Translations under genes and position numbers: made by a program
In this document: positions 1 through 3,888 of the stretch, piece after piece
How positions within the stretch are numbered: position 1 is the stretch's first letter
How the letters are laid out: every line of letters begins with the position of its first letter
Notes under the pieces: model-generated
Database searches by the model: none
Told to the model about the DNA's origin: nothing
What the model saw: only the letters and a program-made list of their open reading frames with translations
IMG/VR virus record: IMGVR_UViG_3300032116_000002
From: a virus
Taxonomy: Duplodnaviria; Caudoviricetes
DNA length: 64,000 nucleotides
Direction: 5' to 3' (one strand)

Positions 1-489
1 CTTTGTTCTACCCATTACTTCTTCGGTATCAAAATCAAAATAACATTGTGTTTTACTAATAATATCTTTGTTTACCCAATCCACATCTAACAATTTGTGA
101 AACTGGGGAACCAAACTAAAACATTCATTTTTAGTAATAAACCTTGTGTAAAGTTCATTGCTAAAATTGATCACCATAATGTCTGTAGAAACTACATTTT
201 CTTTTAGAAATTTATAGTAAGGAAATTTTGTTAATTCAACATAAGCCTGATCATACAAAAAACTTTCATGAGGATGCTCAGGGTATTGCTCTTTCATATA
301 GGTAAACATACGCTCAGCCATACTACTAGGCTGAGCGTACAGTGACATTAAACTTGTACCATGTGGAGGATACTTGTTTATTAAAACATTCCCACCTGCT
401 AGGTCATATCTTCTAATTACACTTGGACTATGTAATGAATCCCATAAATCACATGCACCAAAGTGAAAAATTCTAGGTCTTAAAATCAT
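1..489 (-). CDS. Hypothetical protein, 3'-truncated by window edge (MILRPRIFHFGACDLWDS...)
   Basis: Manual translation: ATG at 489 overlaps the HNH stop (ATGA at 486-489); frame stays open for 163 codons to position 1. Not in the ORF track. Confidence 0.8.
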   Translation of the reverse strand, partial: MILRPRIFHFGACDLWDSLHSPSVIRRYDLAGGNVLINKYPPHGTSLMSLYAQPSSMAERMFTYMKEQYPEHPHESFLYDQAYVELTKFPYYKFLKENVVSTDIMVINFSNELYTRFITKNECFSLVPQFHKLLDVDWVNKDIISKTQCYFDFDTEEVMGRTK

Positions 490-1043
490 GTAAGAATTCT
501 ACTATGTTTCGGAACCCCGCTTAATAAGTATTCCATTTGATCCGCAAGAATGTTTCTATTTTGCAAAATCATACTTTCAAAGTGATTAGGTTCATAAGGC
601 ACATAAAGTAGTTCCATTCTTGCTTCTTTAAGTGTCTTATTATCTTTTTTGTTATTACACGAAACACATGCAGTAACAACATTCATCCATGTATTTACTC
701 CACCTCTACTTTTGGGTAGGATGTGATCTCGGCTTAAATGATTACTGTTAGAGAAATGCCCTCCGCAGTATGCACATACATGACGGTCACGTCCAAACAA
801 TGTTTTGTTTGTCAATGCAACTTTGCCGTGTTTAGCCGGATCGAACCCATGTCCTTTGATTGCAATGATACTAGGAGTTTCAATGTAACTCAAACGTCCG
901 TCATTCTGAATTCCACCATGAAACTTTGCAACAACTTCACCTAGCGACCATGCAACCATATCTTTTGCAAAATATGTGATTGCATTTTCGTGCGAAATCC
1001 ATTGTCTAGGGATTCCGCCGATGTCCAACGCTAGTACCGACAT
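486..1043 (-). CDS. HNH endonuclease (McrA/COG1403-like) with PLMP/RRXRR-like N-terminus; IshB-like architecture
   Basis: CAYCG, SRDHILPKSRGG and WMNVVTACVSCNNKK form a Zn-finger HNH. The N-terminus VLALDIGGIP has the same spacing as the VFVLDxxGxPLMP motif. SD AAGGAG at 1050-1055. Confidence 0.9.
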   Translation of the reverse strand: MSVLALDIGGIPRQWISHENAITYFAKDMVAWSLGEVVAKFHGGIQNDGRLSYIETPSIIAIKGHGFDPAKHGKVALTNKTLFGRDRHVCAYCGGHFSNSNHLSRDHILPKSRGGVNTWMNVVTACVSCNNKKDNKTLKEARMELLYVPYEPNHFESMILQNRNILADQMEYLLSGVPKHSRILT

Positions 1044-1067
1044 GATTTTCTCCTTAAAAGTTAAATG

Positions 1068-1073
1068 TATTTA
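1068..1073 (-). promoter_or_regulatory. T4-like late promoter motif TAAATA upstream of the HNH gene
   Basis: CTAAATACATT lies 25 nt upstream of the ATG; the same motif recurs at many operon heads. Confidence 0.5.
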
Positions 1074-1136
1074 GACACTTTCAAATATAGTACTCATCCT
1101 CTTACATTCGGAGTGTAATGATGTTTCCTCTATGTC

Positions 1137-1322
1137 AAAAAGTGTATGGTAAAGCAAACTGATCCTATGTCATCGGTCATAGGGTTACACATGTTCATCA
1201 ATTTGCTTTATCATTCCCGTTTTACTCTGCTGTTACCGCCAGCACTTTCATCAGGGGCTCCGCCCGTTCGCAGCATGTTTACAGTGCGCTGCTGAGACCT
1301 CGTTTCTCTCACACCTAAACGT
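1137..1322 (-). ncRNA. Candidate structured non-coding RNA (~185 nt), family unknown
   Basis: ORF-free, GC-enriched stretch directly behind a sigma70 promoter. Hairpins: 1293-1297/1307-1311, 1270-1274/1288-1292, 1255-1258/1262-1265, 1228-1232/1240-1244, and a 14-bp stem 1150-1163/1197-1210 with inner 1164-1169/1178-1183. The mismatches become G-U pairs only on the minus strand. Confidence 0.6.
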
Positions 1323-1323
1323 G

Positions 1324-1473
1324 TTAAGATTCTAACACGGTATTGTCTTTATTGTCAACCTTTTCGCTAAAACCATAGAATTCTCTAATCCTTTCAAACT
1401 TTTCAGTTATCAATTTGTTAAGTTGTTCTTCTGATAATATATGGTTGTCAATATTATCTTTTTGATAATTCAT
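1324..1473 (-). CDS. Small 49-aa protein MNYQKDNIDNHILSEEQLNKLITEKFERIREFYGFSEKVDNKDNTVLES
   Basis: Manual translation; GGAG SD followed by an A-run before the ATG at 1473; TAA at 1324-1326. The 3' end overlaps a sigma70 promoter. Confidence 0.6.
   Translation of the reverse strand: MNYQKDNIDNHILSEEQLNKLITEKFERIREFYGFSEKVDNKDNTVLES
1329..1358 (-). promoter_or_regulatory. sigma70-type promoter TTGACA-18-TAGAAT
   Basis: -35 at 1353-1358, -10 at 1329-1334. A 7-bp inverted repeat (1320-1326/1333-1339) overlaps the -10. Confidence 0.7.
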
Positions 1474-1490
1474 TTTTTTCTCCATATAAC

Positions 1491-1524
1491 AAAAAACCCT
1501 GGGACTTTTTCAGTACCAGGGTTT
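1491..1524 (-). terminator. Intrinsic terminator (attenuator-type)
   Basis: AAACCCTGG-TACTGAAAAAGTC-CCAGGGTTT followed by TTTGTT on the minus strand. Confidence 0.85.
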
Positions 1525-1545
1525 AGATAATCTTACTATGAAACT

Positions 1546-2444: not shown

Positions 2445-2963
2445 TTAATTACTCAATAACCTTGCTACAGAGGTCATAACCGCTGCTATTCGCCCTATAT
2501 CTCGTAATTGTTCTACTGTATATCCTTCTTTTTTAAGTGTTTCATAATGTGCCTTAACACAAAAATGACACTTACCTACTATACTTGCTGCAAGACTATA
2601 TGCCTCAAATCTTGCTTTGGTTGTACCACCATGCGTTGCAATCGCATTCATACGCAACTGTGCTGGCAAACCTTTTAATTGTTCATCATCTGCCATTTCA
2701 ACATATGGATACCATACATTGTTTTGTGCCATAATACTAGCTGCTGTTAGTGCTGCATCAGCCTCTTTACGATCACTTAATTGGCTGTGAACCCATGTCC
2801 AAAATTTTGAATTGCCAGTTGCAAATGCTGCTGCAAGTGCCACTGCCTCTGCTTCTTCAACTGGTAACGTACTACGTTTAATTACTGCATCTATGTTTAG
2901 TTTTGTATCCTTAGCGTATTCAGGAATACTTTGTTCTTTTAATGCGTCTACCCATGCTGTCAT
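2445..2963 (-). CDS. ahpD: Alkylhydroperoxidase AhpD
   Basis: YAKDTKLN, AQNNVWYPY, LRMN and EAYSLAASIVGKCHFCVKAH (CxxC..H) motifs. Confidence 0.92.
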   Translation of the reverse strand: MTAWVDALKEQSIPEYAKDTKLNIDAVIKRSTLPVEEAEAVALAAAFATGNSKFWTWVHSQLSDRKEADAALTAASIMAQNNVWYPYVEMADDEQLKGLPAQLRMNAIATHGGTTKARFEAYSLAASIVGKCHFCVKAHYETLKKEGYTVEQLRDIGRIAAVMTSVARLLSN

Positions 2964-3355
2964 TTTGTTAAAACTCCTAGTTGTCTATATCCTTTATATG
3001 TAGGATGGACCTTATCGGGAGATAGTTCAGGAATAATAATAAAAGTATCACCAAAATGTCTAGCAATTTTTTTAACCAACTCTTGTTTCTCTGGTTTAAT
3101 TGCAGGTACTATCCAAAATACTTGATCTGAATTAACATGAGTTCTTAATGCGACCAATTCTATTTCAGTGTTTAAGTTTTTAAAATCATTACTCCCTAAA
3201 CTAATAATTGTAGTTTTGGCAGGCTTGATTTTTTTAACATATGCATCATTCCAGTCTTTGCTATTGATACCACTCTGAGCATAAGCCACGCACTCAGTAC
3301 GTACTTGGCTTATACCCTTTGCTATGCTATCTCCTAAGATAAGGCACTCTATCAT
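2960..3355 (-). CDS. Minimal SGNH/GDSL-like hydrolase
   Basis: ILGDSI (block I), SLGSND (block III), DKVHP (block V). Confidence 0.75.
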   Translation of the reverse strand: MIECLILGDSIAKGISQVRTECVAYAQSGINSKDWNDAYVKKIKPAKTTIISLGSNDFKNLNTEIELVALRTHVNSDQVFWIVPAIKPEKQELVKKIARHFGDTFIIIPELSPDKVHPTYKGYRQLGVLTK

Positions 3356-3888
3356 TATAGTGTCTCGCCACCAACTGAACGGTTACATGCACATAATTCA
3401 CCTGTTTGTAGTGCATCTAGTACACGCAATGTTTCTTCTGGGCTACGACCAACATTTAGGTTATTAACAGTAACGTGTTGGATTACATTGTCTGGATCAA
3501 CAATAAATGTTGCACGGAGTGCTGCACCTGCAGGGGCGTAGAAAATGCCAAGCTGATTGATTAAGCTTAGTTCACCGCGCTGTGTATCTGCAAATTGTAC
3601 ATGTGTAATTTTTGCTAGATCAGGGTGTGCTTTCTGCCATGCTAATTTGCAGAATTCATTGTCTGTTGAACCAGTCAATAATACTGCATCACGGTCTTTG
3701 AAATCATTTGCCAACTTATCGTATGCTACGATTTCTGTTGGGCAAACAAATGTGAAATCTTTTGGGTAGTAAACGATAACTTTCCATTTACCTTCAAAAC
3801 TTGTGTCGGTAATGTCAAAAAACTGATCACTACCTGGGTTGACGCCGGTTACGGCAAATTTTTCAATGGTATCACCAACTGTTTTCAT
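3355..3888 (-). CDS. ahpC: 2-Cys peroxiredoxin AhpC
   Basis: YPKDFTFVCPTEI peroxidatic motif, ALRATFIVDP, GELCACN resolving Cys. Confidence 0.95.
   Translation of the reverse strand: MKTVGDTIEKFAVTGVNPGSDQFFDITDTSFEGKWKVIVYYPKDFTFVCPTEIVAYDKLANDFKDRDAVLLTGSTDNEFCKLAWQKAHPDLAKITHVQFADTQRGELSLINQLGIFYAPAGAALRATFIVDPDNVIQHVTVNNLNVGRSPEETLRVLDALQTGELCACNRSVGGETL

Follow-up and report, generated by a model that had tools for sequence, protein, structure and literature searches.

The putL and putR elements of phage HK022 and the nut-type elements of phage lambda and of rrn operons are folded or specifically recognised elements that occur in a single copy where a long transcription unit begins and act on the polymerase that made them. 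The put RNAs consist of two simple hairpins and measure about 70 nt, and the rrn operons, like the tRNA arrays of phages, are untranslated. In the T4-type tRNA cluster, two RNAs that are not tRNAs, rnaC and rnaD (the species 1 and 2 small stable RNAs), are encoded at the 3′ end of the array, where they adjoin the homing endonuclease gene segB. Other orphan structured RNAs of phages and prophages, GOLLD and ROOL (RF02032 and RF03087), are often found beside tRNA genes, and the HEARO or omega-RNAs of IscB-type nucleases lie directly 5′ of an HNH-domain protein. Lastly, a double T-loop of the form AGNNA...UGNNA docks the tRNA elbow in RNase P, in T-box leaders and in the L1 stalk (PMC3664808).

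The RNA described here shares one or another trait with each of these systems and was encountered in a window of 64,000 nt of phage DNA, by which we mean the whole stretch that was analysed; coordinates throughout are positions within it, and the RNA lies on the minus strand. A sequence-only reading had noticed an ORF-free, GC-enriched island of short hairpins behind a near-consensus sigma-70 promoter and had interpreted it as a structured RNA of about 185 nt. That observation is partly confirmed and its interpretation partly supported: a structured non-coding RNA behind a minus-strand promoter is genuine, but its length and part of its fold had been misread. The locus is made up as follows:

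1-489, minus strand: open-ended ORF of at least 163 aa without Pfam or PHROG match, overlapping the stop codon of the HNH gene by 4 nt (ATGA)
486..1043, minus strand: HNH endonuclease gene, 185 aa (Pfam HNH_5, E 2.7e-15), with a ribosome-binding site AAGGAG at 1055-1050
1044-1323, minus strand: gap of 280 nt between the 53-aa ORF and the HNH gene
1075..1322, minus strand: full structured RNA of about 248 nt, that is, a conserved core and a clade-typical 3′ extension (H5 and P6), with inferred ends
1324-1485, minus strand: ORF of 53 aa without a known family, flanked by the upstream terminator and the RNA
1329..1358, minus strand: predicted sigma-70-type promoter, with −35 box TTGACA at 1358-1353, an 18-nt spacer and a TG-extended −10 box TAGAAT at 1334-1329
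1491-1540, minus strand: intrinsic terminator 5′ of the 53-aa ORF, a strong hairpin CCCUGG...CCAGGG followed by the U-run UUUUUU

The gap is crossed by chance ORFs only (33 and 49 aa), and the GC fraction rises from 0.23-0.42 in the flanks to 0.50-0.52 at 1201-1350, so that both the ORF-free and the GC-enriched character of the island hold good. The predicted promoter matches the consensus at 11 of 12 positions, carries the TG extension, is invariant in sequence across the close clade (alignment A1) and is kept in all close relatives; promoter-like sites as a whole are no more frequent in the region than expected (8 against 8.6). The last codons of the 53-aa ORF encode it, so that the two overlap at the 3′ end of the ORF, and because the RNA directly follows a terminator in many other phages, the ORF and the promoter together look like a clade-specific insertion. 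Among 92 variants, 25 have a strong intrinsic terminator, of the same type as that at 1491-1540, a few nucleotides before the start of the RNA, and in others promoter-like sequences precede it. The 5′ end of the window's copy was assumed to lie about 7 nt past the −10 box.

The −10 box itself is wrapped by a 7-bp palindrome, CGTGTTA GAATCT TAACACG (1320-1339), which shows a compensatory change in L011 and G-U pairs on the minus strand in relatives, and the same design surrounds TAGAAT in L119, a member of a distant subfamily. The palindrome could be an operator, or an RNA hairpin of read-through transcripts. Farther upstream, a block of three genes on the minus strand (2445-3888) encodes an AhpC-type peroxiredoxin, a GDSL-like hydrolase and an AhpD-like (CMD) protein, which recur in 12, 20 and 20 related loci, respectively. 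A conserved upstream protein partner of the RNA was considered and rejected, these three being the commonest families and occurring in at most 20 of 82 loci.

The RNA is not the isolated gene of one phage that the first reading implied, but a member of a large family that heads phage tRNA arrays. A search with the HNH protein retrieved 28 IMG/VR loci, and in 13 of those 28 a homologue of the RNA lies 5′ of the HNH gene at 76-88% identity, with indels among the 13 upstream regions deleting whole sub-hairpins. A scan with the exact core added two more, divergent copies, one of which adjoins tRNA genes directly and has no HNH gene. A degenerate pattern (AACGAG, 20-45 nt, GGGCGG, 7 nt, GATGAAA) then returned at least 119 matches in IMG/VR, with 105 distinct variants among the matches listed, 3 of them false, and two IMG/VR scans with other anchors gave at least about 90 additional members. 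Since these scans are anchored on motifs and their counts are lower bounds, family size and "invariant" residues are only partly known, and part of the apparent sequence invariance is a product of the search patterns. Every relative is a metagenomic contig.

A covariance model of the core, R1, found exactly one match per source in 100 of 100 sources and in 94 of 95 further ones, and hence a single copy in 194 of the 195 phage contig pieces searched; no second copy was detected by R1 in about 1.9 Mb of sequence. In the window it matches 1321-1212 at 106 bits (E 1.6e-22) and on the minus strand alone, where the G-U pairs also occur, in keeping with the strand proposed from the sequence. When the family motif pattern was run against 185,579 prokaryote genomes, the matches listed were chance matches in coding sequence only, at least 120 being returned where an estimated 113 or so were expected. 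No match was obtained by blastn of six diverse members against 50,697 GenBank phage records, a search that is insensitive because the exact stretches are short, and no cultured phage carrier was found in it. The leader RNA family, as we call it from here on, is phage-specific.

Comparison with described RNA families gave no assignment. None of the 4,227 models of Rfam 15 matched the window at gathering thresholds; on positions 900-1600, with E up to 10, nothing was matched inside 1075-1322; and on ten other members, with E up to 1, nearby tRNAs alone were found. Rfam and covariation searches were what the sequence-only reading had suggested as checks; no Rfam family is matched, and conserved, covarying homologues are present in many phage contigs. 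GOLLD and ROOL are several times larger than the leader RNA, and neither was matched in the window or in the ten members. Neither Rfam nor the literature searched gave a description of the family, although a 2023 IMG/VR catalogue of 8,495 candidate RNAs might contain it unnamed. Homology to rnaC and rnaD was rejected as well: with filters off, the best score of R1 on the T4 tRNA region was 6.3 bits (E 0.29), and it did not fall on either gene. A superficial likeness was seen between the segment pair CUGAUGG...GAGUAAGG of T4 rnaD (L156 4909-5172), which is loop-E-like, and the GAUGAAA/GAGUAAAA loop of the leader RNA, with no match by R1.

Comparison among relatives predicts the following elements of the leader RNA:

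1212..1321, minus strand: conserved core of 110 nt, the match to R1
1311..1315, minus strand: 5′ strand of S1, GGUGU, paired with GCACU at 1287-1283 in the H2 loop to form an H-type pseudoknot
1294..1308, minus strand: hp1, stem GAGA/UCUC with the 7-nt loop AACGAGG
1270..1292, minus strand: H2, stem GCAGC/GCUGC, whose loop holds the S1 3′ strand and a conserved UAAACAU
1260..1265, minus strand: conserved junction GGGCGG, preceded by C1266
1216..1256, minus strand: H3 domain, in which 1256-1254 pair with 1218-1216 and close the internal loop that encloses hp4
1252-1246 and 1228-1219, minus strand: internal loop, with 5′ side GAUGAAA and 3′ side AGAGUAAAAC
1243-1229, minus strand: hp4, the hairpin inside the H3 internal loop
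1149..1211, minus strand: H5, a long helix of 1211-1195 with 1162-1149 (AUAAAGCAAAUU... with ...AGUUUGCUUUAC) and a variable tip at 1163-1194
1075..1145, minus strand: P6, whose closing helix pairs ACACUUUU (1145-1138) with GAAAGUGU (1082-1075) around an optional insert at 1083-1137

Folded singly, the sequence is unremarkable against shuffles (minus-strand z = −1.97, plus-strand z = −1.59), and the case therefore rests on comparison with relatives. Across 92 distinct sequences, 84.9% of the cells of the four modelled helices (hp1, H2, H3 and hp4) are paired, against 51.5% in shuffles, and the covariation score is 0.715 against 0.196, with none of 500 shuffles as high and slid registers reaching at most 0.138. 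An earlier alignment made with MAFFT only gave the same picture, RNAalifold recovers hp1, H3 and hp4 unaided, and the modelled pairs rank on top of an unsupervised mutual-information scan. The same scan pointed to a tertiary Watson-Crick pair, G1298:C1266, in which position 7 of the hp1 loop meets the residue just 5′ of GGGCGG; the pair reads G-C in 70 members, A-U in 19 and C-G in 2, with one exception. S1, which is not included in R1, has the general form 5′ AGUGY with RCACU of the H2 loop and occurs in several compensatory types (AGUGC/GCACU, AGUGG/CCACU, AACGU/GCGUU, ACGUGU/GCACGU, ACCGGU/GCCGGU and UACGC/GCGUA). As predicted from these comparisons, the core is an arrangement of four helices tied together by the 5′ pseudoknot S1 and the loop-to-junction pair.

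Three of the four short hairpins read from the sequence, hp1, H2 and hp4, are upheld by covariation, and the fourth, GGGC-GGA-GCCC, is not: in L011 and L040 GCCC is altered and GGGC retained, GCCC being instead one strand of H3 that covaries with CGGG 35 nt downstream. Covariation is strong in both H3 and hp4, H3 being reduced to 3 G-C pairs in the window's clade. No pairing partner was found for the junction GGGCGG. L038 and L040, both retrieved with a pattern that left this junction free, keep it; in the other members its constancy was dictated by the search patterns.

In the 3′ extension, the 14-bp stem of the sequence-only reading corresponds to H5, which has compensatory versions in relatives (L111, L038, L151 and L047) and tips that vary or are absent, as in L002. 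The U-run at 1137-1141 is not a terminator, none being called there on the minus strand, but the 5′ strand of P6, a conserved helix with compensatory versions in L047, L056 and L041; the leader RNA therefore spans about 1322 to 1075, or roughly 248 nt in place of 185. The further hairpin at 1095-1123 turns out to be part of the optional insert inside P6, and in L001 P6 is kept while the insert 1083-1137 is gone. The 3′ domain as a whole is subfamily-specific and is absent in L073 and L085. A two-state switch between S1 and P6 was rejected, P6 being present in some subfamilies only, and so was a look-alike of the rrn boxA in the 3′ strand of H5, where covariation preserves the helix and L038, L151 and L047 no longer carry the motif. 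A recurrent optional insert was observed in the tips of H5 or P6 of many members (1164-1194 and 1083-1137 in the window; also L029, L041, L068, L119, L125, L130 and L081). It reads (U)AGAUGAAC followed by a hairpin with a 6-nt loop C-Y-Y-Y-G-A (CUUUGA, CUCCGA or CCCUGA) and looks like a portable RNA module.

ARAGORN predicts 1,327 tRNAs in 101 non-redundant loci, all of them on the strand of the leader RNA, and none in the window, where no tmRNA was found either. No tRNA lies upstream of the leader RNA in 77 of the 101 loci, or in 64 of the 87 that have at least 1 kb of upstream sequence, whereas of the 87 loci that extend 400 nt or more downstream, 85 have tRNAs there. The distance from the GAUGAAA motif to the first tRNA has a median of 219 nt and a minimum of 38-39 nt (L085 and L073), and the first tRNA is of 15 kinds (Gln in 21 loci, Arg in 13, Met in 13, Tyr in 12, and others). 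No terminator was found 3′ of the leader RNA. That the family exists, with this fold and this rule of position, we regard as very nearly certain.

What the leader RNA does is a separate matter. It is found as a single copy, on the sense strand and at the 5′ head of a transcription unit, which is the position that put and nut elements occupy, and these facts, taken with the knotted fold, the missing terminator of its own and the restriction to phages, lead us to infer that it is a cis-acting leader of the array transcript, a reading to which we give a probability of roughly 0.45. The leader RNA would be transcribed as the first element of a long untranslated tRNA-array transcript, which in many relatives would run on from an upstream terminator or attenuator and in the window's clade would start at the conserved sigma-70-type promoter. 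On emerging, the folded leader would engage a conserved factor, for example RNA polymerase or an enzyme of RNA processing or decay, and this engagement would secure elongation, processing or stability of the array in cis, after which the cut of RNase P at the first tRNA would release the leader.

The analogy with put and nut is one of position, and an action on the transcribing polymerase is put forward as a proposal; no likeness in sequence or structure was found, and the 110-nt knotted core is unlike the put RNAs. A need for antitermination is unproven, since two arrays scanned for terminator-like sites showed few on the sense strand, and those weak. Perfect sense-strand promoters of the form TTGACA-17-TATAAT were also observed inside arrays (L147 10349-10502; L103 11603-11575, 1684-1656 and 229-201), and an element at the head therefore cannot govern every polymerase. 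A compact knotted fold with conserved unpaired nucleotides, moreover, would be just as well suited to a trans-acting RNA, a ligand sensor or a ribozyme.

The first of these, a stable RNA that is excised by RNase P and other RNases, builds up and works in trans in the manner of a decoy, sponge, mimic or scaffold, we judge somewhat unlikely. The leader RNA is GC-rich and tightly folded, an RNase P site directly follows it (in L085 and L073 the first tRNA begins 38-39 nt past GAUGAAA), and its conserved unpaired motifs could serve as a binding surface. The T4 tRNA region, by its annotation, encodes small stable RNAs, and rnaC and rnaD can be assumed to behave as trans-acting RNAs carried on the array transcript. 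Such an RNA would have no need of first place, however, yet there is one copy per locus and it stands at the head, while rnaC and rnaD stand at the far end of their array and score at most 6.3 bits with R1. Nothing was found in particular favour of the decoy, sponge or scaffold role named in the sequence-only reading, and the strict head-of-array position favours a leader of its own transcript.

A sensor or riboswitch-like leader that tunes array expression would account for an aptamer-like architecture placed 5′ of the genes to be controlled, and at first sight the internal loop speaks for it. In 84 of 92 variants of the first, pattern-biased set the loop reads UGAAA, hairpin, AGNN(N)A, reminiscent of the AGNNA...UGNNA double T-loop (PMC3664808) and of a segment of RNase P in which GUGAAAa precedes a hairpin whose 7-nt loop is rich in purines. 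In members found without demanding GAUGAAA, though, the 5′ side becomes GAUG[G/A][A/C]N (GAUGGCU, GAUGAAC, GAUGGAG) and the 3′ side is often a run of A with no G, so that the six near-invariant T-loop residues are lost; the order of the motifs is, besides, the reverse of that in RNase P. For these reasons the leader RNA is not filed under the double T-loop, the elbow dock was rejected, and the resemblance would be at most a subfamily feature. A T-box leader was likewise rejected: Rfam gives no T-box or riboswitch match, no conserved terminator, antiterminator or other expression platform follows (the 3′ domain varies and is missing in L073 and L085), and with 15 first-tRNA identities a codon-like specifier is unlikely. 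Altogether we consider a sensor distinctly improbable.

The position of the leader RNA exactly between an upstream transcript and the tRNAs would also suit a self-cleaving ribozyme that splits a leader-peptide mRNA from the tRNA precursor, and the two helix-crossing tertiary contacts (the S1 pseudoknot and the loop-to-junction pair) and conserved junction nucleotides are of a kind with such an activity. We think this very improbable: no Rfam ribozyme family is matched at E up to 10, RNase P already cuts at the first tRNA, and the order of helices is unlike what we take to be the fold of HDV-like ribozymes. An RNase P-like mini-ribozyme was rejected too, the likeness being local, the P4-type topology absent and the Rfam RNase P models unmatched.

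This leaves the HNH gene, whose place directly 3′ of the leader RNA in the window invites a comparison with nuclease-guide systems. HNH matches occur in 27 of the 101 loci, and 23 of these are 47-95% identical over nearly the whole protein. The gene lies directly 3′ of the leader RNA in 10 of the 83 loci that have room for it; in 13 others a close homologue (47-77% identical) lies 0.4-6.3 kb deeper in the array, and 4 more have weak matches alone. On the contigs of L012, L013 and L016 the leader RNA stands at the head and the HNH gene behind several tRNAs, and a complete 314-kb phage carries a distant HNH homologue (49% identity) and no copy of the leader RNA. Because the two occur independently, the HNH gene behaves as a free-standing homing endonuclease of tRNA arrays, for which segB, the free-standing homing endonuclease of the T4 tRNA region, is a model (PMC2330249). 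Far from being an RNA-guided partner, the gene is mobile and in the window's clade has inserted itself after the leader RNA and ahead of the tRNAs, and by virtue of its insertion at that point the leader RNA also forms its 5′ untranslated region. In L001 and L037 a tRNA-Arg directly follows the HNH gene, so that the ORF at 1-489 would be one more insertion, found in the window's phage. In the window's clade the inserted genes put about 0.8 kb or more between the leader RNA and the tRNAs, which makes a role that needs direct contact with the first tRNA unlikely.

The idea that the leader RNA is the partner or guide of this nuclease, in the style of IshB or IscB with omega-RNA, has for it the direct 5′ placement on the same strand as the 185-aa HNH protein in the window's clade and an HNH domain that resembles those of IscB and Cas9, but it is already contradicted and hardly credible, as the arrangement is confined to one clade, the obligate adjacency of HEARO systems is absent, no HEARO or omega-RNA model of Rfam is matched, and the matches to solved structures lie in the HNH domain alone, spanning residues 73-162 at most. 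Relatives of IscB carry a PLMP-type N-terminal domain; in Pfam, as among solved structures, the protein of the window is matched over its HNH domain alone.

Within the reading preferred here, that of a cis-acting leader, a more far-reaching version can be envisioned, in which the knotted core is a new kind of cis control RNA for untranslated tRNA operons and sets the phage's tRNA yield, either by reprogramming elongation, as in put-like antitermination, or by sensing a translation-related signal together with a preceding leader-peptide attenuator. We hold this version to be unlikely.

Whatever the mechanism, the leader RNA is larger (about 248 nt) and more widespread, among many uncultivated phages, than was first thought. 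It represents a new and widespread phage RNA family, one without a match in Rfam or a description in the searched literature, for which we propose the name tRNA-array leader RNA. The family is a well-defined RNA class: its core measures 110 nt, its fold is supported, and both the targets for mutation and the genomic rule are clear. Its definition corrects a tempting misreading, in that the neighbouring HNH gene is a mobile insertion and not part of an RNA-guided nuclease system. Large phages carry arrays of 10-40 tRNA genes, and to our knowledge the expression of such arrays is almost unstudied. A strongly conserved, knotted, single-copy RNA at the heads of these arrays, in a sample of at least about 190 contig pieces, suggests that array expression or processing includes a dedicated step based on RNA.
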